DNA of 64,000 nucleotides, taken from NCBI GenBank assembly GCA_013151915.1, contig JAADHJ010000044.1, positions 67,029 through 131,028 of the forward strand. Reading direction: 5' to 3'. The position numbers and the translations under genes were made by a program. Position 1 is the stretch's first letter. Every line of letters starts with the position of its first letter. Below the pieces are notes generated by a model. It searched no databases. It was not told where the DNA came from and saw only the letters and a list, made by a program, of their open reading frames with translations. The DNA comes from Deltaproteobacteria bacterium. Lineage in GTDB: Bacteria > BMS3Abin14. Of the stretch, positions 1,235-59,506 are shown piece by piece.

Positions 1235-2667
1235 CCGTTCGTCAAAAAATTTCCCTGTTGATTACAGCAGCCGGTTTTTTATCCAGTCTGGTATTTTCCT
1301 GCATCATATTGTGGGAAACGCTCGAACAGCCATTTAGAATTATTGATTCTGAGCTGGAAACCGCCGCCCAACGGGCTGTCGGTATTGTTTTAAAAAATGA
1401 GAAAAAGAGCTGGGAAAAGGGGTATTCGATTCAGGATAACCCTTTGTTTGTCGGCGATGATCGCTATTGGCTGAAGATTTACGATCAGAACACCGGTCGG
1501 CCGGTTTACCGGTCTCATTTGGCTACACTGATAGACATCCCGGAACCGGCACCAGGCTCCAGTGCTACTGTCAGCGTCATCATCCCCCCGGAAAAAATCC
1601 ATTTAGAGCAGGATCGTCAGAACGAGGTGACCTTCCGGGTCAAGGGTTCCAAAATTGTACTTGATGGGAGGACGTTTCTGGTTTATGTAGGCCGTCCCAT
1701 GGAAAAACTTGAAGAAGAAACATGGGATATCATAATTGGAGTCGTCAGCGGGCTTGCGTTTTCAGTGCTGCTGCTGATGGCTATCAGCTATTTTGTTGCC
1801 GGGTTTATCCTGAAACCCGTCAGGATCATAAACGACCAGGCCCGGGATATCACGGAAAAACACCTGCACCGGCGGATACCGGTAACCGGTGACCGTGATG
1901 AATTCAACGCGTTGGCGCAAACCCTCAACCAGGTCTTTGACCGGCTGCAGCATGCCTTCTTACGGCAAAAGAGGCTGCTTGCCGATGCGTCCCACGAATT
2001 GAAAACCCCACTGACCATGATGCGGTTGGCGCTGGATGAAATACGCTCAGCCCACGGCGAACATCCACCTGGCCTGCAAGCGGAAAACCTTGCGTGGCTG
2101 ACTGAGCAAGTGCTGCGCATGGAGCAGCTCGTGAAAAATCTTTTGGATCTGTCATCGCTTGAAATCGAAGGCACCACAACAGAAGATCCGGTAGATGTGG
2201 TCAAAATGTTGGAATCATTGATAGCTGATTATTGTTTTTTGGCTGATACGCGCAATATTCAAATAAACGCCCGTCTTCCTGAGCAACTTATCGTGAAAGG
2301 AAATGCGGCAAAGTTGAACCGCGCATTTTCCAATATTCTGGACAATGCCGTCAAATATAACGTGAATGGCGGCCGGGTTGAAGTGGTCGGCGACCAATCC
2401 GCTGCTGAACTGACGATAATCGTAACCAACACGGGCCCGGGCGTTGCCGAGGCTGAAATCCATAAGGTCTTTGAACAGTTTTATCGGGTCGAAAAGTCCA
2501 GGTCGCTTCAGCACGGCGGTTCCGGCTTGGGACTGGCAATCGTGAAGAGAATTGTCGAACTTCACGGCGGAAGAGTAAAATTGGAGAGCGAACAAGGGGC
2601 CTGGACCCGGGTAACGGTCTGTCTGCCCTGGGACCGGGAGACGGTCAAGGGCGGAAGTGTCGGGTAA
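1231..2667 (+). CDS. Sensor histidine kinase (2 TM, periplasmic domain, HAMP, HisKA, HATPase_c)
   Basis: H-box LADASHELKTPLT plus N, G1 and G2 boxes (NAVKYN, GGSGLGLAIVKRIVELHGG). There are two hydrophobic segments. The start overlaps the regulator by 4 bp, consistent with an operon. Confidence 0.85.
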   Translation: MTVRQKISLLITAAGFLSSLVFSCIILWETLEQPFRIIDSELETAAQRAVGIVLKNEKKSWEKGYSIQDNPLFVGDDRYWLKIYDQNTGRPVYRSHLATLIDIPEPAPGSSATVSVIIPPEKIHLEQDRQNEVTFRVKGSKIVLDGRTFLVYVGRPMEKLEEETWDIIIGVVSGLAFSVLLLMAISYFVAGFILKPVRIINDQARDITEKHLHRRIPVTGDRDEFNALAQTLNQVFDRLQHAFLRQKRLLADASHELKTPLTMMRLALDEIRSAHGEHPPGLQAENLAWLTEQVLRMEQLVKNLLDLSSLEIEGTTTEDPVDVVKMLESLIADYCFLADTRNIQINARLPEQLIVKGNAAKLNRAFSNILDNAVKYNVNGGRVEVVGDQSAAELTIIVTNTGPGVAEAEIHKVFEQFYRVEKSRSLQHGGSGLGLAIVKRIVELHGGRVKLESEQGAWTRVTVCLPWDRETVKGGSVG

Positions 2668-2690
2668 TTACCATCCCTGTTCATTCTTTG

Positions 2691-3680
2691 CTATATTAAT
2701 TTCCTTCTGCTTAAAAAAAGCAATATTAAAAGATACATACATCCTGTTATGATTATTATATCAATAAAATGGACCACAATAAATGCATAAATAAATATCC
2801 AAGCATCATGAATCAATCTGTCGATTAATTCAAAGTCAGGGCTTTTTAATTTTTTAACTTCATATTTAATTCCTTCTTGAGATATATTGACTTTCATATA
2901 ATGGTAAAAATAATGGGATGGGTCAGTTCCGGCTAATTCACCTCCAGCTCCTCCTGTGATAGTAAAAGGTGTATTCTTCCAATATCCTTTGTAATATCCA
3001 TGAATGTGCGAGCAAAATAACATTGAAACATGATATTTATCAAAAATATCATTTAACTGTCCTGCAAATGTCAAATCTTTCAAGCTGTGACCTTCTTCGT
3101 TTTCTCCTTGGCGTGGATCATATAATGGGACATGCATAAATACAAAGCGGTATTTATACGATTGTGCTTTTTGCAACTCGTTTTCTAACCAATCCAACTG
3201 CCATAAATCCAATCTTTCTTCATTTGCATCATCAAGGATGATGAAGTATGATTCACCAACCTTGAAGGAATAATAGAATCTTCCAAACATTGGATAGTAA
3301 TTAGCTCTTCCATCTTCGCGTAATTCATGATTGCCAATCGCTGTAAGGAAAGGTTTATCGGCTTTTTTAATCTGATTTATAAAAAATCTGAATTTTTCCT
3401 TTTCTCCGTCCTCGACTAAGTCTCCGATGTCGATGGCAAATATTATATCATCATGATTTAATTTGTTTATCAATTCATCAAATGTTGTTATTGAATTCTT
3501 ATTGTCGCCGAACACGGCAAAGCTATATGTATCGTTTGTTTTATCAATTTTTTTAATTTCATGATAATTCCAATCATTAACTTCAGGGAAGGTAAATATT
3601 GAATATAGTTTTATTGTTACTGAGAATATTAAAATCAATATTACAGCATAGCTTATATATTTATTAAAATATTTTTTCAT
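2691..3680 (-). CDS. Membrane-anchored calcineurin-like metallophosphoesterase
   Basis: MPP motifs are present (FAVFGDN, DIGDLVE, GNHE, HVPLY, SHIHGY). There are N- and C-terminal hydrophobic segments. The gene lies in a strongly AT-rich islet. Confidence 0.75.
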   Translation of the reverse strand: MKKYFNKYISYAVILILIFSVTIKLYSIFTFPEVNDWNYHEIKKIDKTNDTYSFAVFGDNKNSITTFDELINKLNHDDIIFAIDIGDLVEDGEKEKFRFFINQIKKADKPFLTAIGNHELREDGRANYYPMFGRFYYSFKVGESYFIILDDANEERLDLWQLDWLENELQKAQSYKYRFVFMHVPLYDPRQGENEEGHSLKDLTFAGQLNDIFDKYHVSMLFCSHIHGYYKGYWKNTPFTITGGAGGELAGTDPSHYFYHYMKVNISQEGIKYEVKKLKSPDFELIDRLIHDAWIFIYAFIVVHFIDIIIITGCMYLLILLFLSRRKLI

Positions 3681-3703
3681 TTATTCATTTCATTTATCAT
3701 TGT

Positions 3704-4300
3704 TTAGTCCTTTGGATAAAACTTTGATACAGTATCTCCAACCTCTTCAAGCCATCGGCTCCGTTGTTCAATTGTGCTTATTATAACCATTTTAAACATC
3801 TTTCGATGGAATCGTGTAACTCCGCAAAGACCAAATATGCAATTCTTCCATATAGTTTCTAAAGGATCACCAAAAACCTTCTCCTCTCTTTCAGGTAAAG
3901 TATTGGATGTATTGAATACAATAGCTGATTGTGCTTTCAATAATCCTTTTGGTACCCCTTCGCCCTCGTCGCCTTCTTGAAATTCGTATGCAACTCCAGG
4001 ACGAATTACTCTATCCATCCATCCTTTCAAGATTGCGGGCGGCTGACCCCACCAGTTTGGATGAACTATTATAATTCCATCAGAATCTTTCAATTCATTA
4101 CAATACTTCTCTATATACGGATGAATATCTGCATCTCTTTCCATCTCATTTGCAGGAAGAATTGGATCAAAACTTTCTTCATATAAATCATGAAAAAATA
4201 TATGATGGCCTTGCGATATAAGTGTCCTTAATGCAATATCGGCAATTGCGTGATTGAAGCTATTGCTGTCTGGATGCGCAAGTATTATTGATAATTTCAT
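3704..4300 (-). CDS. Flavodoxin-like fold NAD(P)H dehydrogenase (quinone) / Flavodoxin_2 family
   Basis: The N-terminus MKLSIILAHPDSNSFNHAIAD and overall length and pattern are typical of MdaB/KefF-like FMN reductases. The gene is AT-rich, like its neighbour. Confidence 0.65.
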   Translation of the reverse strand: MKLSIILAHPDSNSFNHAIADIALRTLISQGHHIFFHDLYEESFDPILPANEMERDADIHPYIEKYCNELKDSDGIIIVHPNWWGQPPAILKGWMDRVIRPGVAYEFQEGDEGEGVPKGLLKAQSAIVFNTSNTLPEREEKVFGDPLETIWKNCIFGLCGVTRFHRKMFKMVIISTIEQRSRWLEEVGDTVSKFYPKD

Positions 4301-4384
4301 CTTGTTTATCTCTAATCAATATTTACGAATCTCTCTTCGCACCGTGCAGCAGTATCCCGCGTCCGCTGCATTTGCCTTGTTCGA

Positions 4385-4999
4385 TCACCTCGATGCAACT
4401 GCCACTTTTATCCCAAAACCAATAAACAGCCATCCGCACACCTTCCGTGTGATTGACTGAATCGTGTGACTTTCTTGAAATGCCACGCCAACTCTGGATG
4501 AGACATGGCTGAGAATGCAGAGATATGTGAAGCTGATCGCCATGAAAACAAAGGTCATGCCGACATATGGAACAAGTAGTCCACCTTGAGCAGATTGAAT
4601 AAATACCGGAAAAAACGCCATAAAGAAAAATACGGCTTTGGGATTGAGCAGCGTAATCGTGAGAGCTCTCCGCAAAGACAAAGCAGAATCCTGAGGAACC
4701 ACTGACTTGTTTTTCCGATTGGCGAAGATTGACTGCAAGCCGAGAAAAATCAGATAGCCGGCACCAATCAGGCGAACAGCGTGAAAAAGTGATGGGTGTG
4801 TCATGAAAAGCGCAGAAATGCCGAGTAGAGAGAGCATGATCAAACATGTGTCACCGAGCATGATGCCGAACATGGCCATGCGTCCTGCTCTCGCACCTAC
4901 AGATCCGGCTGTCTTAGCCACGAAAACAGAGCCGGGACCGGGCGCAAGCACAACGGCTAACGAAGCAACGGTAAATCCTATCCAGTCAACATTTGTCAT
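4385..4999 (-). CDS. LysE/RhtB-family amino-acid exporter
   Basis: Six hydrophobic segments are predicted. The LysE-type N-terminus reads VDWIGFTVASLAVVLAPGPGSVFVA. The start is placed at the internal ATG (MTNVDW), not the extended ORF start. Confidence 0.75.
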   Translation of the reverse strand: MTNVDWIGFTVASLAVVLAPGPGSVFVAKTAGSVGARAGRMAMFGIMLGDTCLIMLSLLGISALFMTHPSLFHAVRLIGAGYLIFLGLQSIFANRKNKSVVPQDSALSLRRALTITLLNPKAVFFFMAFFPVFIQSAQGGLLVPYVGMTFVFMAISFTYLCILSHVSSRVGVAFQESHTIQSITRKVCGWLFIGFGIKVAVASR

Positions 5000-5323
5000 G
5001 TTTGTCTTCCTGATTGAACTGGTTATTCTACACAAAATCTCCGTTTGCCGGGGACGGACCACCTCCACAGCCACACATTATAACGTCCAGTGCCGGGTTA
5101 TCAAGCGGAACATGAAGAATCAGCTGATGATGAAGCTGTCGTACGATGGCGGTTTGTGTCTGATGGAACTGCTGCGAGGATCTCGACCATGAATATTTTT
5201 CAATTTTTCTCCTTGATTTCCTTCCCATTCGCTACTAAATAATTATTGAGGGCCTACTGGTGGGGCACCTTTGGCCATGCCCTGTGTCAGCCTTTAAGCG
5301 GAAAGCCTGGGGTGGAATATTCC

Positions 5324-6055
5324 ATGATGTTCAAGCCGATCAAAAAGACGAGGGTGTACGAGGAGATTGTCGCAAAAGTGACCGAGATGATTAACAATGG
5401 CATTCTCAAGGAGGGTGACCAGCTTCCGGGGGAGCGGGAGTTGGCGGAGACGTTCAGCGTAAGCAGATCGTCCCTTAGGGAAGCTCTCCGAACACTTGAG
5501 AGCCAGGGGTTTCTGGAAAGCCGGCAGGGAAACGGGACATACGTGGCCAGCCAGCCCGTCGAGCTGTTGGTGAAACCCTTTGCCTCTGTAATCCTTTCTG
5601 AAAAGGGTGCGCAGAGTGAACTGTTCGAGATGCGGCGGTTAATAGAACCTCAGGTCGCCTATCTGGCTGCCGAACGGGCCACATCTGAAGAGATTGACCA
5701 GATGGAAAAAATCCTTGCCGATCAGGAATCGCAGGTTGCCGGGGGAGGGACAGGCACGGATGTTGATAAGGCGTTTCATTACGCGTTGGCTGAGGCGACA
5801 AAAAACAGGATTCTTCTGCGTATGATGGACGCCGCCATGGAGTTTTTCAGCGAGAGCCGTGATAACTACCTGCAGATAAAGGGAAGGCCGGAAAAATCCC
5901 TTGTTCGCCACAAAGAGATGCTCAACGCCATTAAAGCGGGGGAGAAGAAGCTCGCGGCCGGTATAATGCGTGAGCACCTCGAGGATATCGAGAGCAGTCT
6001 GTTTGAGGTAAAAGACAGGAAAATCTCGGCGAAGTCCGTCGGTAAAAGCAACTGA
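5324..6055 (+). CDS. GntR-family transcriptional regulator, FadR/FCD subfamily (paralog 1)
   Basis: The N-terminal GntR HTH (ERELAETFSVSRSSLREALRTLESQGFLESRQGNGTYV) is followed by a C-terminal FCD-type helical domain. It is about 93% identical to the paralog at 44831..45565. Confidence 0.8.
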   Translation: MMFKPIKKTRVYEEIVAKVTEMINNGILKEGDQLPGERELAETFSVSRSSLREALRTLESQGFLESRQGNGTYVASQPVELLVKPFASVILSEKGAQSELFEMRRLIEPQVAYLAAERATSEEIDQMEKILADQESQVAGGGTGTDVDKAFHYALAEATKNRILLRMMDAAMEFFSESRDNYLQIKGRPEKSLVRHKEMLNAIKAGEKKLAAGIMREHLEDIESSLFEVKDRKISAKSVGKSN

Positions 6056-10027: not shown

Positions 10028-10290
10028 AGAGGCCTTCTACTTGAGGATCGGCCAAAATGCAAGACGTCACCAGAACTATGATTCCCACAGTCATGTTCGC
10101 GGAGGCCGTCAGGATAGGGGCGGCCGGCTCTCCTTGCGTTCAGAGTCCGTTTTTACGCAGAACTAAAGGCTATTGCCGGAATTTGTGATATATTCGATAT
10201 AGAAACCAAGGTACATCACGATAATGCGTACCTTATTTGCGGTGTCAGAATCGCCCATGTCGTTACCAAGAGACTTTTTACGAGGCCGTC

Positions 10291-10758: not shown

Positions 10759-10829
10759 GGTTTTTGACCCTGTTCCCCAGCCCTTTCCCCGGTCTATCGA
10801 TGCATGTTCTCACCAGGTTTATCTTATTG

Positions 10830-11414
10830 CTAAGGAATAACAGAGGACACACGGCATGGTATTCCAAGCCATCTCCCGGTTCTTGATTTGTACGAACGGT
10901 ACTCCTCTCCATAAATACGCTCAAGATAAGGCTCCGCCAGCCGAGTAGTATACAAACAGATAACAATAGTGGCCGCTCCAGTAAGCACAAAAGCAAGCCC
11001 TGATCGGCCGGCAAGCGATATACCTGAAAGATAAAGAAGACAGCCGATAAACTGCGGATTTCTACTCCATCTATATATCCCGGTGGTTATGAGTTCTGAA
11101 ATGTCCTGTCCGCAACTTCTGCGCAAGGAGCGGAACTCAATCATCCCTGTTGCCAATACAACAATACCAACCACAATCAAAACCAAACCACCCGTTAAGG
11201 CGAATATCTTGTTAAGCGGTATCAGCCACAACCCATATAGCGACGAGAGGATTATCGCCAGATGGTAAAACCCCCACATAACAAACCAAAGGTTCAAAAG
11301 TTTATTTGTGAAGACCCCATTTCTATCATAGGTCTTCTTAATCTCGGAAAAAACATATATTCCCAATACCACCCATATGCCTATGGAAACACTCAAACCT
11401 ATGTACAACCACAT
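10830..11414 (-). CDS. Isoprenylcysteine carboxyl methyltransferase (ICMT)/PEMT-family membrane methyltransferase
   Basis: The C-terminal signature is RWSRNPQFIG...EP.LE..YGEEY..Y. Several TM helices are predicted. The gene has lower GC. The start is taken at MWLYIG, which has an AGGAAG ribosome-binding site. Confidence 0.65.
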   Translation of the reverse strand: MWLYIGLSVSIGIWVVLGIYVFSEIKKTYDRNGVFTNKLLNLWFVMWGFYHLAIILSSLYGLWLIPLNKIFALTGGLVLIVVGIVVLATGMIEFRSLRRSCGQDISELITTGIYRWSRNPQFIGCLLYLSGISLAGRSGLAFVLTGAATIVICLYTTRLAEPYLERIYGEEYRSYKSRTGRWLGIPCRVSSVIP

Positions 11415-11454
11415 TATTATCTTCCTTCTCTTGTTTGGATCATACTGGAAATGG

Positions 11455-11512
11455 GTGCCTGGAACCCGACGTCCAAAGTTCAACGTTCAAGGTTCAACGT
11501 TCAAGGTTCAAC
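11455..11512 (+). repeat. GTTCAA-hexamer repeat element, copy A1 (CCTGGAACCCGACGTCCAAAGTTCAACGTTCAAGGTTCAACGTTCAAGGTTCAACC)
   Basis: Direct repeats of GTTCAAC/GTTCAAG. A related element occurs at 12964..13010 and in the MITE-like insert at 22840..23073. Confidence 0.6.
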
Positions 11513-11609
11513 CACCACCCGTTCGCGGTGAGCCGCTCCTTAACCCGATAAGGTACGCATTACCCGGAGGACCTCATGCTTTCAATTGTCAATGATCAGA
11601 TTCATGCAC

Positions 11610-12878
11610 TTATTTGTGCGACAATTCAAAAGAAAACTGCTTCTCGTAAAACTCTCTTGCAGCATTTTGTTTGTCAGCTACGTAGGAATAAATTTCTTCA
11701 TAATTCTCGAAAAGCAGGTTGACGATTCTGGTATCCAGAAGGCGATTATCAGAAAGCTGTTTAAGGATTTGAACTACACCGTCTTTGGACATACCTTTTC
11801 TATATGGTCGATCTTCAGTCAGTGCGGTAAATATATCTGCAACCATCATAATTCGCGCCCCTGTGCTCAGGTCGGCTGCCGTGCAGTGAAAAGGATATCC
11901 TGATCCATCAGGTCTTTCATGGTGATAAGCGGCCCATTCGGCAATCTGCTTAAGACCTCCGATGGTATTAATCACAGAATAGGTATAGTAGGTGTGTGAT
12001 TTCATAACCGCCATCTCTTCTTTTGTAAGTTTCCCGGGTTTATCCAGAATGCTGTTAGGAATCGCCAGTTTACCTATATCATGCAAATTCCCTGCAACCT
12101 CCATAAGCCCTATTTCTGTTGCCGTCAGGCCAAAAACTTTTGATAGCATAGAGGCAGACGCGGCAACACCTGAAGAATGTGTTGAAGTAAAACGAGAACG
12201 GAAATCAATTATATTCCGAAAAAGCTCCGATATTAAGGATATATCCGAAAAGTCTATTTCTGTTTTTCTGAAAGGTCCTTCGTTAAGGAGAAAAGAATAT
12301 AACCTGGGAGAAACCAGGTCCAACCAGAATTCTTCGCGATTAGAGATCGCCAGGAAAAGATCTATAGCCTGAGAATGAAAAAGAGAACCAGACAAAGCTT
12401 CTATTTCAAGGATAATATTTTCATGCTGATGAAGAATATAATGATCTCGTTTTATTTCACGCTCAAGATGATCGGCAAGAAATAATAATTGTGAATCGAA
12501 AACAAGAGGAGTTTCAATTGATTCTTTCCAATTTTGCCATTCGTTGTGATGACATCTGATTATTTTTGACGACTCCTTTAACCACGGTATGTTACTGAAC
12601 AAAATTTCACCGCGTATGCAATGACCTTCGGTGTTTTCGACTTCAGAATTTCGAAGGGAGATTTTTTCCTCCAATGAAAGAGCGCCGATATCATGGAGCA
12701 ATGCAGCTATGAAAATATTTTCCAATCTTTCATTTGTGAGACCTGCCGCTTTCCCCATTTCCCACACAACAAATGCCGTCCTTTGTTGATGTTGAATTAA
12801 TGAAGGATCGGCCAAATCCATGGCATCGGAGAGTGAAAGGATAAGATTGCCTAAATTGACTGTAATTTGACGCTGCAT
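11610..12878 (-). CDS. HD-GYP domain c-di-GMP phosphodiesterase-type protein (N-terminal degenerate HD + C-terminal HD-GYP)
   Basis: Motifs LHDIGAL, LHDIGKLAIP and HHERPDGSGYP are present. The gene is low-GC (about 40%) and flanked by direct GTTCAA repeats. Confidence 0.75.
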   Translation of the reverse strand: MQRQITVNLGNLILSLSDAMDLADPSLIQHQQRTAFVVWEMGKAAGLTNERLENIFIAALLHDIGALSLEEKISLRNSEVENTEGHCIRGEILFSNIPWLKESSKIIRCHHNEWQNWKESIETPLVFDSQLLFLADHLEREIKRDHYILHQHENIILEIEALSGSLFHSQAIDLFLAISNREEFWLDLVSPRLYSFLLNEGPFRKTEIDFSDISLISELFRNIIDFRSRFTSTHSSGVAASASMLSKVFGLTATEIGLMEVAGNLHDIGKLAIPNSILDKPGKLTKEEMAVMKSHTYYTYSVINTIGGLKQIAEWAAYHHERPDGSGYPFHCTAADLSTGARIMMVADIFTALTEDRPYRKGMSKDGVVQILKQLSDNRLLDTRIVNLLFENYEEIYSYVADKQNAAREFYEKQFSFELSHK

Positions 12879-12963
12879 ATCGTTTCCCCCAAATTATTTC
12901 AGCTGACCAGCTACGACTTCGTAAAAAAGATATTCTTCCAACTATTTGAAAATATGGTTTATC

Positions 12964-13010
12964 CTGGAACCCAACGTTCAAAGTTCAAATAACAACGTTC
13001 AAAGTTCAAC
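12964..13010 (+). repeat. GTTCAA-hexamer repeat element, copy A2 (CCTGGAACCCAACGTTCAAAGTTCAAATAACAACGTTCAAAGTTCAACAGG)
   Basis: Same orientation and 5' end as copy A1. It is followed at 13040..13090 by an approximately 80%-identical remnant of the 3' end of the ICMT gene. Confidence 0.6.
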
Positions 13011-13282
13011 AGGAAAAAGAAAGTTCAATGCCGATGCCTGTTTTCAGCAGGTTTATCCTACTGCCAAAGAATAGCAGATGGCATCCGGTATGGCAATCTG
13101 ATCACCATTATCGTGGGTATTCGGCCTGGACTGTGGGTGGACTTTCAAAGGGTCCGAACTGTTTGAAAAGAAGGGTGCAAATAGAAGGCAAATAGGACTT
13201 GACCCCATTGGATTGAAGCGTAAAATTAAGACGCCGGAGCGTTTCAAAGATTTTCAATCGTTTAAAGACGGGATTTTTCTCT

Positions 13283-14347: not shown

Positions 14348-15399
14348 GAACCCCAAAGATGATTGGGGAAAGGAGCGTATTTCCCCCCGGACGCGGGTGC
14401 CGGCCGGCCCTTTTCATCCTGGCCGCGTCATTGTCTGTCATCATCCTTCAGACATCCATCGCCTCAGGCGCAAACAACGGCAGGGCTGTCCCTTTCCTCG
14501 ACCTGTACCGCCCCGCCGGGAAACCCGGGATTCAGGTTGCCGCGTTCAAGTCTTTTGGATCCACGCGGATTCCATATGCTGACGCAACGGTGTTCGTCGT
14601 GTTACCTGACGGCGGGGCCTGGTTCGGAAAAGCGGACTTACTCGGCCGCTGCGAGATCCCGGCGCGGGTGATTCTACCCCATATTGAAACGAAGAGCGGC
14701 CCGGCGACCTTGCGGGTTGCCCTGTCGCTTAACGGGACCGTGGATGAGAAGAGGATCACCGTCTCCAAAAGCGAGCTTGTTCAGTATGCTGATAGCGCGG
14801 CCGACAGTAAGGTTGAAGAGGGGAACGCCCTGGCGCGGAAGGGTGGGCTTCGTGAGGCGATCTCCCTTTACAGGGAGGCGCTTGTCTTAAATCCCCTTTC
14901 CTCGCGGGCGGCCTACAACATCGCCTTCGCCTACGAGAAGCTGGGGATGATGCGCATGGCTGTCGCCGCCTACGCGGATTACCTGCTTCAATGCCAGGCA
15001 AAGGCGCAGGATCGGGAGGACGTCAAGAGGAGAGTCATCAATCTTTCCCGGGGGTTGACCCCCCCGCCCCCCGTGCTCGCGCGCATCTTCGGCATGCTTG
15101 ACAAGGCGTCCGCGCTTGCCGTTGGGGGAGATTCTTTTGGGGCCTTGCGGCTCTACGAGATAGCCCAGTCCGTCGCTCCCTGGTGGGCGGAACCCTACTA
15201 CGGTGCGGGAATCGTATACTACCACTTAGCGATCCAGAACTCTTTTTCCTATGCGGACAATGCCATCCGCTGTCTGAAGAATTTTCTGGCCGCCGTCCCC
15301 CCGGAGGACGCCAGGATTGAGGCCGTACGAAAGAGGGTAAAAGATCTGCTGACAATAAAGGAGGGATTAGATGCACCGAAAACAGTTTCTTCATACTAG
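14344..15399 (+). CDS. Secreted TPR-repeat protein
   Basis: Signal peptide plus TPR-like A/Y/L-rich repeats (AISLYREALVLNP, AAYNIAFAYEKLG, AEPYYGAGIVYYHLAI). The start may be GTG 14344 or ATG 14359. Confidence 0.55.
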   Translation: MRTPKMIGERSVFPPGRGCRPALFILAASLSVIILQTSIASGANNGRAVPFLDLYRPAGKPGIQVAAFKSFGSTRIPYADATVFVVLPDGGAWFGKADLLGRCEIPARVILPHIETKSGPATLRVALSLNGTVDEKRITVSKSELVQYADSAADSKVEEGNALARKGGLREAISLYREALVLNPLSSRAAYNIAFAYEKLGMMRMAVAAYADYLLQCQAKAQDREDVKRRVINLSRGLTPPPPVLARIFGMLDKASALAVGGDSFGALRLYEIAQSVAPWWAEPYYGAGIVYYHLAIQNSFSYADNAIRCLKNFLAAVPPEDARIEAVRKRVKDLLTIKEGLDAPKTVSSY

Positions 15400-16918
15400 C
15401 CTTCGGATGAGGACAACGGTTCTTTACGCCTTGACTCTGGCCATGGCGCTGTTTCTTGTCTCCTGCGCCGGGGGGCAGGTCAAGAAAAAGGAGCCGGTCT
15501 ACCGTTTAGGTGTGCAGATCTCTACGTTCGCTCCCCTGGTCGCGCATGATCTCGGTCTGCCCGAGGATATCAAAGGTGTGCTTGTCATGGCTGTGTCCCA
15601 GGGGTCGCCTGCGGCTACGGCGGGGGTCCGGTCCGGGGACGTCATCGCGGGAATAAAGATGCCTGACGGAAAACTGCAGGAAACGCCCGATACCACTGCC
15701 CTTTTAGAACTGCTCAAGAAGATGCCCATAGACCGGTCGGTAGCGCTTTCCATCCTGCGGGACGGAAAAACGATGGATATCTCCAGCATGCGGAGCACCA
15801 GGCAATTTTCCGGGTACGTTCAGCCCGGGTCCCGGCCCGAGCCGAGGACGATCAAGGTGGCGCCGGACGGATCCGGCGACTGCCGCACCATCACCGGGGC
15901 CATGCTTTCCGCCCGTCCGGGCGACACGATCCTGCTCTCTCGTGCTCCCGGTCCCGGCGGGGTGTACGGTTCCTTCCAGCTCTTCCTTGACAACCTGACC
16001 GTTCGCTCGGAAGACCCGGCGAACCGGGCGGTTGTGCAGCAGATCGTTGTGGATGGCCTTTCCGGAGTGAAGCTGGCCGACCTCGAGTTCCAGGTGAGCC
16101 AGCAGGGAAGCTGGCCCGGAGTGCATGTCCAGGGTTCCAAAGAGGTGACGGTGGAAAACTGCACCTTCTCAGGATATGTAAAAGCGGTCACCATCAGCGG
16201 TTCCAGAGAAGTCTTTATCAGTGGCAACCGTATGGAAGAGAATGCCCTGGGAATATTGGTGGATTCCGGTTCGGAATTTAAAATTAAGGATAACCTGATT
16301 ACCGGAACCGGGGTCCGGTGGGCCGACAGTAAGGGGATCTACATCTCAGGTTCCCGTGGAACGGTTTCGAATAATACGATCCTTTACTACAAGGTAGGGA
16401 CCGAAGCGTTTATAAATGACCTGAAGAACGGCGGGTATGGCGGGTATAATGTTACCGGCGTAGGTATCTACGTGGGCCAGGGTTCCAACGTTTCCATCGA
16501 GAACAACATCGTGTATGACAACAGCGCCGGGATATACGTGCAAGCGGGCGAAACAACCCACTACCGCGTCGAGTACAACGATATCTTTCAGAATACCATG
16601 GAGACCGGACAAACTGGAAGTAGAGACTTTGCGGATTACCTTACCGGCTCCGACTGGAACATATCAAAGGGGGTCAAGAAGAGGCATGAGTCGTCGCCCA
16701 TTCTGTCGCTTTCCATATGGGACCACAACTACTACGCGCCAAACCCCATGCCCCTTTCGCGGACTAACCTTTCCCGGGATCCGTTTTTCAACGACCCTGT
16801 GCGCGGCGACTATCGCCTGGCCGCCGACTCGCCGCTCGTCGGAAGGGGCAGAGGCGGAACCTACATCGGAGCTTTCCCGCCGATAGAGCAAAAGGCAGGG
16901 ACCGGGGAGTTCAAGTAA
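15371..16918 (+). CDS. Lipoprotein with PDZ domain and right-handed parallel beta-helix (pectate-lyase/NosD-like) repeats, paralog 1
   Basis: Lipobox LVSCAGG. PDZ region GVLVMAVSQGSPAATAGVRSGDVIAGI. The beta-helix N-cap is DGSGDCRTITGAM...PGDTILL, followed by repeated NNTI/ENNIVYDNSAGIYV-type rungs. Confidence 0.7.
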   Translation: MHRKQFLHTSLRMRTTVLYALTLAMALFLVSCAGGQVKKKEPVYRLGVQISTFAPLVAHDLGLPEDIKGVLVMAVSQGSPAATAGVRSGDVIAGIKMPDGKLQETPDTTALLELLKKMPIDRSVALSILRDGKTMDISSMRSTRQFSGYVQPGSRPEPRTIKVAPDGSGDCRTITGAMLSARPGDTILLSRAPGPGGVYGSFQLFLDNLTVRSEDPANRAVVQQIVVDGLSGVKLADLEFQVSQQGSWPGVHVQGSKEVTVENCTFSGYVKAVTISGSREVFISGNRMEENALGILVDSGSEFKIKDNLITGTGVRWADSKGIYISGSRGTVSNNTILYYKVGTEAFINDLKNGGYGGYNVTGVGIYVGQGSNVSIENNIVYDNSAGIYVQAGETTHYRVEYNDIFQNTMETGQTGSRDFADYLTGSDWNISKGVKKRHESSPILSLSIWDHNYYAPNPMPLSRTNLSRDPFFNDPVRGDYRLAADSPLVGRGRGGTYIGAFPPIEQKAGTGEFK

Positions 16919-17966: not shown

Positions 17967-19478
17967 TTGATGGGTCGAAAACAGTATTTTCATACCAGTC
18001 TTCGGATGAGGACAATGGTTCTTTACGCCGTGGTTCCGGCCATGGCGCTGTTTCTTGTCTCCTGCGCCGGGGGGCAGGTCAAGAAAAAGGAAGCGGGTTA
18101 TCGTATCGGCGTGAACATGGGTACCCTCAATCCCGCATTGGCGCAGGATCTCGGTTTGCCGGGGAACCTGAAAGGTGTGGTTGTCGTGGCGGTGTCCCAG
18201 GGGTCGCCCGCGGCTGCGGCGGGGATCAGACCAGGGGATGTTGTCCTGGGGATAAAAACGGCGGACGGAAAGCTGCAGGAAACGCCCGACACCAATGTAT
18301 TCGTAGAGTTATTGAAAAAGATGCCGATAGATCGCCCGGTGAAATTCTCCGTGCTCCGCGGCGGAAAAACGATGGATATTTCCAGCACGCAGGGCACCGG
18401 GCAATTTTCCGGGTACGTTCAGCCCGGGTCCCGGCCCGAGCCGAGGACCATCAAGGTGTCGCCGGACGGATCCGGCGACTGCCGCACCATCACCGGGGCC
18501 ATGCTTTCCGCCCGCCCGGGCGACACGATCCTGCTCTCTCGTGCTCCCGGTCCCGGCGGGGTGTACGGTCCCTTCCATGTTTTCCTGGACAACCTGACCG
18601 TTCGCTCGGAAGACTTGGCGAACCGGGCGGTTCTGCAGCAGATTCTTTTAAAGGGTCTTACCGGTGTGAAATTGAGCGGCCTCGATTTTAGGGGGAGTCC
18701 GCAGGGAAGTTGGCCGGGGGTGCATATCAACAACTGCAACAGGGTCACGGTGGAAAACTGCACCTTCTCCGGGTACTTCAGGGCGGTGGGCATCCGCGCC
18801 TCCCAGGGGGTTTCCGTTACGGGCAGCCGTATGAAGAAAAACGCTCAGGGGATCGTTGCTTCTCAAACGGATTTTAAAATTAACGGCAATCTTATTGTCG
18901 GGGCACAAAGCGGGGGGCACGACAAGCAGGGGATCTGGATCTCAGGTTCCCGTGGAACGGTTTCGAATAATACGATCCTTTACTACAAGGTAGGGACCGA
19001 AACGTTTATAAATGGCCTGAAGAACAGCAGGTATAATATTACCGGCGTAGGTATCTACGTGGGCCAGGGTTCCAACGTTTCCATCGAGAACAATATCGTG
19101 TATGACAACAGCGCCGGGATATACGTGCAAGCGGGCGAAACAACCCACTACCGCGTCGAGTACAACGACATCTTTCAGAATACCACTAAGACCGGACAGA
19201 CGGAAGATGGAGATTACGCGGATTACCTTACCGGGTCGAACTGGAACTTCTCCAAGGGGACCAGGGTCATAAAGAAATCGTCTCCCCTCCTTACGGTTTA
19301 CGGATGGGAGCATAACTACTTTGCTCCCATCCCCGTGCCCCGCTCACGGACCAACCTTTCCCAGGCTCCGTTCTTCAACGACCCGACCCTGGACGATTAT
19401 CGGCTGGCCGCCGACTCTCCCCTCGTCGGGAGGGGCAGAGGCGGGACCTATATTGGAGCTTTGCTTTCCCGCCGATAG
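17967..19478 (+). CDS. Lipoprotein with PDZ domain and beta-helix repeats, paralog 2
   Basis: Same architecture as 15371..16918. The 5' roughly 300 bp and 3' roughly 500 bp are nearly identical in nucleotides to paralog 1, and the middle has diverged. The C-terminus is truncated by a 5-bp GCTTT duplication relative to paralog 1. Confidence 0.7.
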   Translation: MMGRKQYFHTSLRMRTMVLYAVVPAMALFLVSCAGGQVKKKEAGYRIGVNMGTLNPALAQDLGLPGNLKGVVVVAVSQGSPAAAAGIRPGDVVLGIKTADGKLQETPDTNVFVELLKKMPIDRPVKFSVLRGGKTMDISSTQGTGQFSGYVQPGSRPEPRTIKVSPDGSGDCRTITGAMLSARPGDTILLSRAPGPGGVYGPFHVFLDNLTVRSEDLANRAVLQQILLKGLTGVKLSGLDFRGSPQGSWPGVHINNCNRVTVENCTFSGYFRAVGIRASQGVSVTGSRMKKNAQGIVASQTDFKINGNLIVGAQSGGHDKQGIWISGSRGTVSNNTILYYKVGTETFINGLKNSRYNITGVGIYVGQGSNVSIENNIVYDNSAGIYVQAGETTHYRVEYNDIFQNTTKTGQTEDGDYADYLTGSNWNFSKGTRVIKKSSPLLTVYGWEHNYFAPIPVPRSRTNLSQAPFFNDPTLDDYRLAADSPLVGRGRGGTYIGALLSRR

Positions 19479-19527: not shown

Positions 19528-19610
19528 GACTCTGGACCCTTCGACAGGCTCAGGGCAGGCTCTGGACTCTGGACTCAGGACACTGGACTCTGGACTTCAG
19601 GTTCCGTACC
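19528..19610. repeat. CTGGACT heptamer tract plus GGTTCCG...CGGAACC hairpin, copy D1
   Basis: Reads ctggact ctggact caggaca ctggact ctggact then GGTTCCGtacccCGGAACC. It lies exactly at the break of homology with the paralog 1 locus. Confidence 0.5.
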
Positions 19611-19623
19611 CCGGAACCTGAAC

Positions 19624-20490
19624 CTACCCTCCGAAGACCACCGTTTTCCCATTGTGGATCAGCACTCTGTTTTCAACGTGCATTCCAACCGCCCTGGCCA
19701 GCACCATCTTCTCGATGTCCAGGCCTTTCCTCTTCAGCGTGATCACGCTGTCGCGGTGGGTCACAGGGACAACGTCCTGAAAGATGATGGGACCTTGGTC
19801 CAGCTTCTCGGTAATGTAGTGGCTCGTAGCGCCGATGATCTTGACCCCCCGCATGAATGCCTGCCTGTAGGGATCGGCCCCGACAAAGGCGGGAAGGAAG
19901 GAGTGGTGAATATTGATGATACTGTTGCGGTAGCCGTTGACGAACTTGGATGACAGGATCTGCATGTACCGCGCGAGGACGATGGTATCGATATTTTCTT
20001 TCCTGAGAAGCTCCATCACCTGTTGTTCCTGATCCTTTTTATTGTCCTTCGTGACCGGGAAGCAGTGGAATGGAACGTGGTAGTATCCGGCGATGTCCCT
20101 CTGGTCCTCGTGGTTGCTGATGATGCAGGGGATATCCACCTGGAGGTGGCCGCTCCGCCACCTGTACAGGAGATCAAGGAGGCAATGGCCCTGCCTGGAG
20201 ACCATGATGGCTATCCGTTGTTTCCGGTCTGAGAAGAAAAGTCTGTGGGCCATTCCCAGACGCCAACAGACCTTGCTGAACTCATCATCCAGGTCCTCCC
20301 GCGGGATCTCGAAGCCGTCCATGTCCCAGCGGATCCTCATGAAGAACATGCTCTCCACGGGATCGGTGTGCTGGTCGAGGTAGACGATGTTCCCGCCGTG
20401 ATCGAAGATCCAGTTGGTAATTGTGGCGATGATCCCCTTTGTATCCTTACCCTGGATCAGCGCGGTTACTATGGGGGCCTTGTCACCCAT
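19624..20490 (-). CDS. purU: Formyltetrahydrofolate deformylase
   Basis: N-terminal ACT domain plus formyltransferase core (HHSFLPAF, SHYITE.LD.GPII motifs). The start is taken at ATG 20488-90 (GGGGA ribosome-binding site) rather than TTG 20496. Confidence 0.85.
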   Translation of the reverse strand: MGDKAPIVTALIQGKDTKGIIATITNWIFDHGGNIVYLDQHTDPVESMFFMRIRWDMDGFEIPREDLDDEFSKVCWRLGMAHRLFFSDRKQRIAIMVSRQGHCLLDLLYRWRSGHLQVDIPCIISNHEDQRDIAGYYHVPFHCFPVTKDNKKDQEQQVMELLRKENIDTIVLARYMQILSSKFVNGYRNSIINIHHSFLPAFVGADPYRQAFMRGVKIIGATSHYITEKLDQGPIIFQDVVPVTHRDSVITLKRKGLDIEKMVLARAVGMHVENRVLIHNGKTVVFGG

Positions 20491-20513: not shown

Positions 20514-20693
20514 GGTAGGGTCGTAAAAAGTCCATGAATGGCTTTTTACTCCACGGAAAGCGAAAAGTGTCATTTTCACTTTCCTTACAAATCAACAACC
20601 TGTCCCGTAAATCGATGACCTGCGGGACAAGTCATTGATTTGGGCGCCCCTTAATGGGCGCGATGATGATTTCTTACGAAGTCATCATCTTTA
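20514..20693 (+). repeat. 180-bp multi-hairpin intergenic repeat, unit B copy 1
   Basis: Five consecutive imperfect palindromes: AAAAAGTCCAT/ATGGCTTTTT, GGAAAG..CTTTCC, CAAATCAACAACCTGTCCCG..CGGGACAAGTCATTGATTTG, GCGCCC..GGGCGC and GATGA...TCATC. It is tandem with copy 2. Confidence 0.7.
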
Positions 20694-20880
20694 GGTAGGG
20701 TCGTAAAAAGTCCGTTAATGGCCTTTTTTCTCAACGGAAAGCGAAAAGTGTCATTTTCACTTTCCTCACAAATCAAGAACCTGTCCCGCAAATCGATGAC
20801 CTGCGGGACAAGTCATTGATTTGGGCGCCCCTTAGCGGGCGCATTGATGACTTTTTACCAAGTCATACGAAGTCATCAAT
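20694..20880 (+). repeat. 180-bp multi-hairpin intergenic repeat, unit B copy 2 (about 90% identical to copy 1)
   Basis: Direct tandem duplicate of 20514..20693. It ends in GTTGATGACTTTTTACC..AAGTCATCAAT. Confidence 0.7.
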
Positions 20881-22834: not shown

Positions 22835-22839
22835 ATACG

Positions 22840-23073
22840 TTCCACGTTCAAGGTTTAACGCCCAACGGGGAAAGCACCTTCAACGTTCAACAATGATAGG
22901 GTCGCAAAAAGTCCATTTATGGCTTTTTGCTCTACCCATCAGTGGGCGCATTGATGACTTTTTGCGATGGTGTCAACCATTGAACTCTTGAACCTTTGAA
23001 CCATTGAACCTTTGAACCATTGAACTCTTGAACCATTGAACTCTTGAACCATTGAACCTTGAACGTGGAACTC
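22840..23073. mobile_element. MITE-like element with about 20-bp terminal inverted repeats (TTCCACGTTCAAGGTT / AACCTTGAACGTGGAA)
   Basis: Perfect terminal inverted repeats lie at 22840-22859 and 23054-23073. The interior carries GTTCAA hexamer arrays (about 14 copies) and a deletion derivative of unit B (GGGTCGCAAAAAGTCCATTTATGGCTTTTTGC...GGGCGCATTGATGACTTTTTGCGATGGTGTCAACC). It is inserted between gatA and gatB. Confidence 0.6.
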
Positions 23074-24608: not shown

Positions 24609-24648
24609 TTCTGGACTCTGGACCTTGGACTCTGGACTTTGGGTTCCG
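24609..24648. repeat. CTGGACT heptamer tract, copy D2
   Basis: Reads ctggact ctggacc ttggact ctggact ttgGGTTCCGgcatCGGAAAC. It has the same composition as 19528..19610. Confidence 0.5.
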
Positions 24649-24670
24649 GCATCGGAAACGTGAAGTGAAA

Positions 24671-44816: not shown

Positions 44817-44830
44817 GGGAAGAATATTCC

Positions 44831-45565
44831 ATGTTGGTCAAACCCATTAAGAAGACGAAGGTGTACGAGGAGATCGTCGCAAAAGTGACCGAGATGATCA
44901 GCAGCGGCACCCTCAAGGAGGGTGATCAGCTTCCGGGGGAACGGGAGTTGGCGGAGACGTTCAGCGTAAGCAGATCGTCCCTTCGGGAGGCTCTCCGAAC
45001 GCTTGAGAGCCAGGGGTTTCTGGAAAGCCGGCGGGGAAACGGGACATACGTGGCCAGCCAGCCCGTCGAGCTGCTGGTGAAGCCCTTTGCATCTGTAATC
45101 CTTTCCGAAAAGGATGTGCAGAGTGAACTGTTCGAGGTACGGAGGTTAATAGAACCTCAGGTCGCCTATCTGGCTGCCGAACGGGCCACATCTGAAGAGA
45201 TTGACCAGATGGAAGAGATCCTTGCCGATCAGGAATCGCAGGTTGCCGGGGGAGGGACAGGCACGGATGTTGATAGGGCGTTTCATTACGCGTTGGCTGA
45301 GGCGACAAAAAACAGGATTCTTCTGCGTATGATGGACGCCGCCATGGAGTTTTTCAGCGAGAGTCGTGATAACTACCTGCAGATAAAGGGAAGGCCGGAA
45401 AAATCCCTTGTTCGCCACAAAGAGATGGTCAATGCCATGAAAGCGGGGAATAAGGAGCTTGCGGCCGGCATAATGCGTGAGCATCTGGAAGATATTGAAA
45501 ACAGTCTGATCTCGGTCAACAGAAAGGAGGAACTTGATAAAACCGAACAGAAAGGGGGGATATAG
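44831..45565 (+). CDS. GntR-family transcriptional regulator, FadR/FCD subfamily (paralog 2)
   Basis: About 93% amino-acid and nucleotide identity to 5324..6055 over roughly 715 bp. It lies directly upstream of the por operon. Confidence 0.8.
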   Translation: MLVKPIKKTKVYEEIVAKVTEMISSGTLKEGDQLPGERELAETFSVSRSSLREALRTLESQGFLESRRGNGTYVASQPVELLVKPFASVILSEKDVQSELFEVRRLIEPQVAYLAAERATSEEIDQMEEILADQESQVAGGGTGTDVDRAFHYALAEATKNRILLRMMDAAMEFFSESRDNYLQIKGRPEKSLVRHKEMVNAMKAGNKELAAGIMREHLEDIENSLISVNRKEELDKTEQKGGI

Positions 45566-59294: not shown

Positions 59295-59347
59295 CCTCCC
59301 TGAAACATTGTTGAGCGGTGATAAACCACGAAAAGCTCCATTATTGA

Positions 59348-59506
59348 TATGGTCGTAAAAAGTCCATTAATGGCTTTTTACTTTACGGAAAGCGAAAAGT
59401 GTCATTTTCACTTTCCTCACAAATCAACAACTTGAACTTGCGCTGCAAGTCATTGATTTGCGCGCCCCGGAAGTGGGCGCGTTGACGACTTCGTAAAAAG
59501 TCATCA
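59348..59506 (+). repeat. 180-bp multi-hairpin repeat, unit B copy 3, immediately 5' of ppdK
   Basis: Matches copies 1 and 2 except that the central hairpin is replaced by a shorter one with compensatory changes (CAAATCAACAACTTG..CAAGTCATTGATTTG). It ends in the repeat-C palindrome. Confidence 0.7.

Follow-up and report, generated by a model that had tools for sequence, protein, structure and literature searches.

A low-GC islet at ~10798-13098 of the window (the whole 64,000-nt stretch of DNA analysed here) is probably a composite, in which two independently circulating low-GC genes, one for an HD-GYP-type protein and one for a membrane methyltransferase, would have arrived by horizontal transfer in a common ancestor of the four sampled relatives. 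A paralogous intergenic module appears to precede each gene; its slot would be filled by an array of GTTCAA heptads prone to slippage or by a GC-rich element of 220-290 nt, and the content may have changed between relatives most simply because repeats slipped, sequence was deleted and one module converted the other. The GTTCAA elements would represent a class of intergenic repeats specific to the lineage and akin to the ends of a nearby MITE-like element, rather than footprints of an HD-GYP insertion. The D2/D2′ duplication at the two edges of the islet would be a separate, older event, with D2′ fixed in the clade and D2 belonging to a replaceable methyltransferase block that gives the open reading frame (ORF) 8 non-native terminal codons.

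The features on which this reading draws are the following.

10798..10864, unstranded: D2, left 67-nt direct repeat; last 8 non-conserved methyltransferase codons, stop and 32 nt downstream
10830..11414, minus strand: PEMT/ICMT-superfamily membrane methyltransferase, 194 aa; ATG at 11414; Pfam PEMT
11444..11463, unstranded: module flank ACTGGAAATGGGTGCCTGGA; ends at the CCTGGA insertion junction
11458..11512, unstranded: D1, copy A of the GTTCAA heptad array, ~6 units; 41-98 nt ahead of the methyltransferase ATG
11550..11568, unstranded: other module flank AAGGTACGCATTACCCGGA; shortly downstream of the HD-GYP stop codon
11610..12878, minus strand: HD-GYP-type protein, 422 aa; Pfam HD_5, HD, HDOD; motifs in translation
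12879..12962, minus strand: HD-GYP leader; kept in three close relatives, only ~22 nt kept in distant homologous loci
12963..13010, unstranded: D1′, copy B of the GTTCAA heptad array; 85-131 nt ahead of the HD-GYP ATG
13032..13098, unstranded: D2′, right 67-nt direct repeat; adjoins the HD-GYP side
22839..23071, unstranded: MITE-like insert in the gatA-gatB spacer (comparison element); 20-nt inverted ends of GTTCAA heptads

Composition and gene content of the islet

Over 10800-13280 the islet has 42% GC, against a window mean of 54% and 57-60% in the adjacent genes. It contains only the HD-GYP gene (40% GC) and the methyltransferase gene (44%), whose GC3 values of 0.355 and 0.467 compare with 0.61-0.78 in 12 other window genes. 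The low-GC islet of the original prediction is thus borne out, in codon usage as well as in base composition. Its neighbours are a HAD-like gene, an aminotransferase, the p354 gene and TPR/NosD genes; ORF translations and Pfam revealed no integrase, transposase or recombinase gene within or beside it.

The HD-GYP protein joins a degenerate HD/HDOD-like N-terminal domain, which has HD and HH without GYP, to a C-terminal HD-GYP domain. Two stretches match Pfam HD_5 (PF13487; E 2.1e-44, 152 bits, cut-off 27.2), and HD (PF01966) is matched at E 1.6e-24. The C-terminal domain carries NLHDIGK and HHERPDGSGYP, that is, both the HD dyad and the HHExxDGxGYP signature; by these sequence motifs the gene presumably encodes a class II cyclic-di-GMP phosphodiesterase. 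Homologues of 75-87% identity occur in Geobacter argillaceus, Syntrophorhabdus, Nitrospirae and Syntrophales, in genomic contexts that differ in every lineage. The clade as a whole (at least ~75% amino acid identity) has a GC content of 0.36-0.45, mostly 0.38-0.43, inside flanks of 0.32-0.67; the G. argillaceus copy, for example, has a GC3 of 0.37 and sits between pilR (0.78) and recC (0.86). Among the distant loci fetched, with and without good flanking sequence, homology covers the coding sequence and at most 22 nt upstream, no methyltransferase adjoins the HD-GYP homologue, and no D1 or D2 sequence accompanies it. The best plasmid match to the HD-GYP protein reached at most 37% identity, pointing to no plasmid vehicle; neither islet protein had relatives in IMG/VR viral contigs; and exact-sequence look-ups of the window HD-GYP protein and of protein P0001 gave no match.

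The methyltransferase starts at an ATG, with the mechanically called ORF reaching back to a TTG at 11483, and ends at a TAG (10830-10832). It passes the Pfam PEMT model (PF04191; E 1.8e-13, 51.3 bits, threshold 25) and fails the ICMT model (PF04140; 19 bits, threshold 24), so PEMT/ICMT-superfamily is the accurate label; the earlier term ICMT-family holds for the superfamily, not for ICMT sensu stricto. Some of its homologues do have the PF04140 annotation. Homologues of 60-94% identity are found in bacteria and archaea, most of them 188 aa long with the C-terminus GIPK*, and those of 60-85% identity lie in unrelated contexts in Actinobacteria, Chloroflexi, Nitrospirae, Planctomycetota and archaea. 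The window ORF reads 8 codons past this family end, into the D2 repeat. An HDOD gene upstream of a methyltransferase homologue (loci L170 and L171) was considered as a conserved partner and set aside: it is not detectably homologous to the HD-GYP protein (E 0.48) and is a single case.

Both families, then, span phyla at 60-87% identity, in unrelated contexts and still low in GC. From this composition and distribution we infer a horizontal origin for both genes; the acquisition is not itself observed, because no empty-site relative was found. An empty site would place the HAD gene directly beside the p354 gene, and all three close relatives carry the islet. In more distant relatives reached via p354 homologues (L164 and L167-L169), synteny is broken or the contig ends at an IS element, and a genome-contig search with the neighbouring aminotransferase gave a best match of 72% identity, with neither synteny nor an empty site.

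Heptad arrays and a variable intergenic slot

The two GTTCAA elements are real and lie in the same orientation, as originally predicted. They align over 47 nt without gaps (11458-11504 with 12963-13009; 83% identical, BLAST E 1.6e-9 within the window), and their 26-nt head, CCTGGAACCCRACGTYCAAAGTTCAA, occurs exactly twice, with 0 occurrences expected from 100 dinucleotide-preserving shuffles. TRF detects tandem arrays of period 7/14 at 11469-11512 and at 12972-13009. No inverted partner was found for D1 or D1′, which lack the TIRs and target-site duplication of a MITE.

Heptads of this kind extend beyond the islet. In the window they recur at 22839-22890 and 23052-23071, in the gatA-gatB spacer, where they form the 95% complementary inverted ends of an insert that carries an 11-unit TTGAACNN array; related CTGGAC heptads lie at 19560-19596 and 24610-24642. 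GTTCAA heptads are also present in L001 and in L164, which retains the gatA-gatB heptads at the same place, and are all but missing from 1.9 Mb of unrelated loci. The 64 kb holds four GTTCAA arrays, two of them inside the islet, so the arrays may yet be associated with it to some extent. They have the hallmarks of heptamer repeats, namely tandem 7-nt units at several intergenic loci with copy number or presence varying between close relatives; a literature search on heptanucleotide repeats yielded nothing relevant. A family of 181-nt units also shows insertion polymorphism between relatives.

The islet was compared in four genomes: the window and three related metagenome contigs (L083, L165 and L166). 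All three carry HD-GYP at the same position with 95.6-96.4% nucleotide identity, and L083 and L165 are fully syntenic with the window. On the window plus strand, the intergenic module reads GGAAATGxGTxCCTGGA, then a variable slot, then AAGGTACxCATTAxCCGGA. The ACTGGAAATGGGTGCCTGGA flank recurs upstream of HD-GYP (L165, L166) and upstream of the methyltransferase (L083, L165), and paralogous copies of the AAGGTACGCATTACCCGGA flank lie upstream of HD-GYP at 7352-7370 of L165 and 1525-1543 of L166; the window copy upstream of HD-GYP retains only CCTGGA and the array.

What fills the slot is different in every genome. L083 has neither GTTCAA array, D1 being replaced by ~280 nt of GC-rich element upstream of the methyltransferase. 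The corresponding array in L165 is shortened to ~3 degenerate units, against ~6 in the window. An array upstream of HD-GYP is present in the window only; at the D1′ site L165 and L166 have a 283-nt stretch holding the GC-rich element instead. This one element, 220-290 nt long and unrelated to GTTCAA, recurs between the same flanks, in front of the methyltransferase (L083) or in front of HD-GYP (L165 and L166); it was seen at these two slots only, and its mobility is therefore putative. The element 3′ of HD-GYP likewise differs between relatives. Within these four genomes the pattern suggests gene conversion between modules, although separate insertions at a favoured target site would look no different.

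Because the arrays are missing, shortened or replaced in relatives, and because the same heptads end the gatA-gatB insert, the GTTCAA arrays are slippage-prone, lineage-specific intergenic repeats and not footprints of an HD-GYP insertion. The footprint originally read into them is contradicted by L083, which has the same gene order with neither copy, and by L165 and L166, which lack the copy upstream of HD-GYP. The possibility that they are ubiquitous intergenic motifs, envisaged at the outset as one challenge to that footprint, is partly realized in the heptads of the gatA-gatB spacer, L001 and L164.

Other roles for the spacers were considered. An RNA element or terminator was rejected: no Rfam match appeared at E up to 1, the intergenic segments fold no better than shuffles (z-scores -0.22 and -0.31), and terminator matches are near shuffle expectation. 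Promoter matches are likewise near expectation, with the exception of one extended -10 match inside D2′, where the minus strand reads TTGCCA-17-TATTCT preceded by TG, a sigma-70-like match (TTGCCA-17-TGCTATTCT, 13096-13068). An integron gene cassette was also rejected, there being no attC-like imperfect palindrome and no IntI, and the 3′ element of HD-GYP differing between relatives.

The 67-nt repeat and competing origins of the islet

D2 and D2′ are 78% identical over 67 nt (E 3.5e-12), with a longest identical run of ~10 nt. About 35 nt of D2 (10830-10864) lie inside the methyltransferase ORF and the other 32 nt past its stop. D2 starts exactly where homology to other methyltransferases ends, and its left edge is the point where the L165 alignment to the window stops. 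The duplicated ICMT 3′ end of the original prediction therefore survives as a repeat, longer than the ~45 nt first noticed and with the original coordinates off by 2-5 nt, but not under that name. Next to HD-GYP, D2′ is constant in all four genomes; its core (13049-13098) is common to all relatives and 13032-13048 is window-specific. The methyltransferase block with D2 varies: D2 is present in L083 and absent from L165, which has D2′ and, at the methyltransferase position, a different, decayed allele (a P0150-like pseudogene). Two methyltransferase alleles thus occur at this locus, with only 60% identity between them although the flanks of the genomes concerned agree at 88-98%. Neither the window nor any fetched locus contains a further D2 copy. 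D2′ is not the tip of a decayed second methyltransferase, because tblastn of the protein against the window found nothing at 13099-13282, even at E 100. A separate, older duplication with D2′ as the fixed copy may account for these comparisons, and integration of a circle at D2 would yield this arrangement as well.

Several other histories have been weighed against the composite islet. The one first proposed, an HD-GYP cassette bounded by GTTCAA elements and inserted beside a resident methyltransferase whose 3′ end it duplicated, draws on the same-orientation D1 copies that bracket HD-GYP in the window and on the copy of the methyltransferase ORF end beyond the right one. Yet it is contradicted by L083 and L165, relatives that keep HD-GYP in place without such D1 copies; the supposed resident, the methyltransferase gene, is low-GC and foreign too; D2 does not belong to the native methyltransferase; and HD-GYP homologues elsewhere have neither D1 nor D2. 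The polarity is moreover the opposite of that proposed, HD-GYP and D2′ being constant and the methyltransferase block with D2 variable. The scheme is very improbable as a whole: the foreign origin of HD-GYP stands, on composition and cross-phylum spread, while the repeat-mediated target duplication does not, since relatives keep the gene without D1. On the view of a small integrated element, D2 and D2′ would be attL/attR-like repeats left when a circle of module, HD-GYP, module and methyltransferase recombined via a D2-like site. Direct repeats at the two edges of a low-GC segment, a left edge coinciding with the L165 breakpoint, and the order of D2 after the methyltransferase and D2′ before the module and HD-GYP, as a circular permutation would have it, all speak for such an event. 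It is nevertheless rather unlikely: the islet neither contains nor adjoins an integrase, transposase or recombinase; two repeats only 78% identical, with no identical run beyond ~10 nt, lack a shared identical core; the window and the fetched loci contain no third copy of the repeat; L165 has D2′ without D2; the two genes travel separately everywhere else; and neither an empty site nor a circular junction was found. It is similarly unlikely that the duplicated module is a specific landing pad, each of whose two paralogous copies could receive, exactly at the CCTGGA junction, at least two unrelated small elements (the array and the GC-rich element), or that the whole D2′-to-D2 unit is the footprint of an integrase-less two-gene circle integrating via a 50-67-nt repeat.

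Selection offers two further accounts. Were the GTTCAA arrays functional operators, tandem regulator sites co-controlling both genes, one could understand why both, oriented alike, sit 40-130 nt ahead of a start codon and have a common identical 26-nt degenerate head. They are dispensable, however: L083 has neither, and the one in front of HD-GYP is missing from L165 and L166, with the genes intact (HD-GYP dN 0.014-0.017). The same heptads form the inverted ends of the gatA-gatB insert, and the leaders show neither significant structure (z -0.2, -0.3) nor an Rfam match, which makes retained operators improbable. Low GC, for its part, might be no sign of transfer if both genes were ancestral and AT-rich through selection. 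The islet is indeed common to all sampled close relatives, so that the same arrangement with similarly low GC, the other challenge envisaged at the outset, does exist across this small clade, and the HD-GYP clade keeps ~0.40 GC in many hosts though dS between copies is near 1. Against an ancestral origin, contexts differ in every lineage; the sister clade of HD-GYP (72% identity) has a GC of 0.48-0.53 where its hosts have 0.55-0.60, the pattern that resident copies should show; and the two methyltransferase alleles are far more divergent than their flanks. Ancestry of both genes is accordingly quite unlikely, and a composite islet of two horizontally acquired genes is the reading we prefer.

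Significance and relation to known systems

The locus is fairly ordinary, because its GTTCAA repeats are an unstable, lineage-wide spacer repeat and not acquisition scars, and the finding has little importance beyond annotating the lineage. Its wider lesson is that a neat picture of a cassette with flanking direct repeats can come from unstable spacer repeats and an unrelated older duplication, which a handful of close relatives suffices to separate. Two by-products are a repertoire of heptamer repeats and MITE-like elements in an uncultured Deltaproteobacteria/Thermodesulfobacteriota lineage, and HD-GYP and PEMT/ICMT-like genes that are low-GC and 60-87% identical across many anaerobe phyla with no visible vehicle.

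Among known systems, acquired-gene genomic islets share with this locus a GC and GC3 low relative to the host, a patchy cross-phylum spread in unrelated neighbourhoods, and a locus at which one allele has been replaced by another among close relatives. Unlike them, it shows neither an integrase nor a tRNA target nor any recognisable mobility gene; an empty site was not seen, and its two genes seem to have travelled independently. With attL/attR-bounded elements and integron cassettes it has in common direct repeats at both edges of foreign DNA and compact, cassette-like genes; here, however, integrase and IntI are both lacking, the repeat has two copies only and they share no conserved identical core, no attC-like imperfect palindrome is present, and shuffled sequences fold as well as the leaders do.

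The STRR heptanucleotide repeats of heterocystous cyanobacteria are reportedly tandem 7-nt units, intergenic and lineage-specific, and are not known to have a function. As here, they occupy several intergenic loci per genome and vary in copy number between relatives, but the unit here is GTTCAAN (with related CTGGACN arrays), the host is a Deltaproteobacteria/Thermodesulfobacteriota metagenome-assembled genome, and at one place the heptads make up the inverted ends of an insert resembling a MITE. With respect to MITEs and other small non-autonomous insertions, D1 and D1′ differ in being single-orientation, without inverted ends or target-site duplications, and the GC-rich element in occupying two paralogous sites only. 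The likeness lies in the 20-nt inverted ends of the gatA-gatB insert, in the insertion polymorphism of the 181-nt unit, and in an islet slot that carries alternative inserts at the same junction.

Composition and distribution of the two-gene islet

The low-GC segment at about 10798-13098 is a small, probably horizontally acquired two-gene islet, old for this clade, whose spacers carry unstable lineage-specific repeats. Its two genes are:

10830-11414, minus strand: PEMT/ICMT-superfamily membrane methyltransferase, with an ATG start behind a GGAAG ribosome-binding site
11610-12878, minus strand: HD-GYP-type protein, 422 aa (Pfam and translation)

The methyltransferase, whose mechanical ORF extends further, to a TTG at 11483, scores above the Pfam cut-off for PEMT and below that for ICMT. 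The HD-GYP protein bears two HD-type domains, the C-terminal one with the HD and HHERPDGSGYP motifs. In 500-nt windows, islet GC is 0.39-0.44 versus ~0.54-0.60 in the surroundings, and GC3 is 0.355 (HD-GYP) and 0.467 (methyltransferase) versus 0.61-0.78 in twelve other window genes, which bears out the low-GC islet with HD-GYP and ICMT-family genes described in the original prediction.

Homologues of the HD-GYP protein at 73-87% identity number in the hundreds; their annotated sources include Geobacter argillaceus, Syntrophorhabdus, Syntrophales and Nitrospirae. Among the related loci compared (79 from a metagenome scan, plus L081 and L082), neighbours differ, none has an adjacent methyltransferase, and nucleotide homology is confined to the coding sequence and at most 22 nt upstream. 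Members of this clade (~75% identity or more) have a GC of 0.36-0.45, most 0.38-0.43, with flanks of 0.32-0.67; the G. argillaceus copy, with a GC3 of 0.37, has pilR (0.78) on one side and recC (0.86) on the other. Copies in a sister clade (72% identity) have a GC of 0.48-0.53 in hosts of 0.55-0.60. The dS of ~1 and dN of 0.12 between the window and G. argillaceus genes point to independent acquisition of the copies from a varied low-GC pool, under ordinary purifying selection. The methyltransferase family displays the same cross-lineage pattern, in bacteria and archaea. Viral contigs yielded no close relatives of either gene, and known plasmids none of HD-GYP. A second case of an HD-type gene next to a member of this methyltransferase family comes from L170 and L171 (3075-4567), where a co-directional gene for a 276-aa HDOD-domain protein lies immediately before a methyltransferase homologue of 83% identity; that HDOD protein has no detectable homology to the window HD-GYP protein.

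Close relatives and the spacer module

The closest methyltransferase homologue, P0121 (94%), led to locus L083 (ENA ERZ23498652 scaffold_3316), which aligns collinearly to ~13 kb of the window (84-98% nucleotide identity) and has the same gene order: NosD, TPR, p349, HD-GYP, methyltransferase, HAD, aminotransferase. Two more islet carriers, L165 (ENA ERZ1742235 NODE_517) and L166 (Logan DRR093003), were found through homologues of the flanking gene p354. HD-GYP is 95.6-96.4% identical in L083, L165 and L166, and the arrangement is therefore common to this small clade; the comparison with relatives suggested in the original prediction thus finds the gene in all three. No empty site was found among the more distant relatives L164 and L167-L169: the latter three have p354 homologues with other neighbours, and L164 ends in an IS4-type DDE transposase (DUF4372 + DDE_Tnp_1; 3-1091) directly upstream of its p354 homologue, a contig end that hides presence or absence of the islet there. 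Between the window and L165, dS is 0.155 for HD-GYP versus 0.27-0.37 for flanking genes, modest evidence compatible with the islet having been exchanged by recombination at a later time.

Other differences from L083 lie outside the islet. Paralogous PDZ/NosD beta-helix genes in the window (15371-16918 and 17967-19478) both match a single L083 gene (80-85% nt), as do paralogous GntR/FCD regulators (5188-6050 and 44792-45508; 93-97%). A second lower-GC island (2628-5073; GC 0.30-0.47), encoding a metallophosphoesterase, a flavodoxin-like FMN reductase and a 174-aa ORF, is absent from L083, which has there ~163 nt with the motif AAGGAACGCATTAACCGGA, also present in the islet spacer module.

The two GTTCAA repeats predicted to flank HD-GYP are real: D1, upstream of the methyltransferase (11458-11504), and D1', upstream of HD-GYP (12963-13009), share 83% identity over 47 nt. 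Both are period-7 arrays of GTTCAAN, and the 26-nt head of D1 occurs exactly twice in 64 kb and never in shuffles. Their reading as an insertion footprint does not hold, the arrays being missing or replaced in the relatives. L083 lacks ~80 nt holding D1' and has an unrelated GC-rich element of ~280 nt in place of D1; L165 and L166 have at the D1' position a 283-nt stretch containing that same element, and L165 retains only about three degenerate heptads at the D1 position. Alignment of all seven spacer copies reveals a duplication larger than first seen, the same module preceding both genes: on the window plus strand, GGAAATGxGTxCCTGGA, a slot, and AAGGTACxCATTAxCCGGA. Slot content varies from genome to genome. 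The GC-rich element, found nowhere else in the window and other loci examined, lies between the same module flanks in each case: ahead of the methyltransferase in L083, ahead of HD-GYP in L165 and L166. The simplest account, drawn from four genomes, would be gene conversion or recombination acting on the pair of paralogous modules, together with slippage and deletion. Part of the module, the 15-nt string TAATGCGTACCTTAT, also occurs in reversed orientation at 10200-10236, just upstream of the HAD-like gene and inside a GGTAC-N13-GTACC palindrome.

The D2/D2' repeat and the replaceable block

D2 (10798-10864), at the methyltransferase end, and D2' (13032-13098), beside HD-GYP, are 67-nt direct repeats (78% identity, E 3.5e-12 within the window). 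The duplication predicted here is thus genuine, although its description as a duplicated ICMT 3' end is not. Family members end in ...GRWIGIPK*, mostly at 188 aa; the window and L083 proteins run on past GIPK with CRVSSVIP or CRVPPVIP, and nucleotide homology to the 87%-identical L084 gene stops at 10857, the inner edge of D2. D2 is therefore not native 3' sequence; the ORF continues into it for eight codons. The window holds no further methyltransferase-like coding sequence beyond D2'. D2 showed neither an RNA-family match nor a notable fold; D2' holds one sigma-70-like sequence match that includes an extended -10 and is directed towards HD-GYP.

L083, L165 and L166 all share the D2' core (13049-13098). 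D2 itself occurs in L083 but not in L165, whose alignment to the window breaks off at precisely 10798. At the methyltransferase position (5167-5650), L165 has a different, P0150-like allele (84-93% aa identity), ~60% identical to the window protein and a pseudogene through an internal frameshifting deletion. By this distribution, HD-GYP with D2' is the constant part and the methyltransferase block with D2 the replaceable one, reversing the predicted polarity, in which HD-GYP was inserted beside the ICMT gene; the original observation is confirmed, its interpretation only partly right. A circle integrated at D2 would leave just this D2/D2' layout, but is improbable because the islet has no recombinase, the repeats lack an identical core, and neither further D2 copies (window and fetched loci) nor an empty site was found.

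Related repeats in other spacers

Beyond the islet, the gatA-gatB spacer holds a ~235-nt insert (22839-23071) with 20-nt inverted ends of GTTCAA heptads, 95% complementary, eleven TTGAACNN units, and an internal 12-nt perfect palindrome pair. L164 keeps GTTCAA heptads at this spacer position, and in L001 a heptad array adjoins the aminotransferase. A GGTTCC...GGAACC hairpin follows each of two related CTGGAC arrays (19560-19596 and 24610-24642); these CTCTGGA/TCTGGAC heptads and hairpins (19560-19625, 24610-24660) occupy the spacers that follow the 17967-19478 gene and gatB.

A separate 181-nt unit, tandemly duplicated at 20514-20866, is a MITE-like family, with further copies in the window (59339-59506, 22897-22932), L083 (8498-8797), L164 (6196-6356) and L168 (213-369), the last a more distant organism with up to 96% identity over 84 nt. 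Its insertion is polymorphic, present in L083 and missing at the corresponding window site, 8474/8475.

Heptad arrays are otherwise almost absent from 1.9 Mb of mostly unrelated loci. Recurring at several spacers here and nearly missing there, the GTTCAA arrays form a lineage-specific class of spacer repeat, with the STRR heptamer repeats of cyanobacteria as their nearest known analogue.
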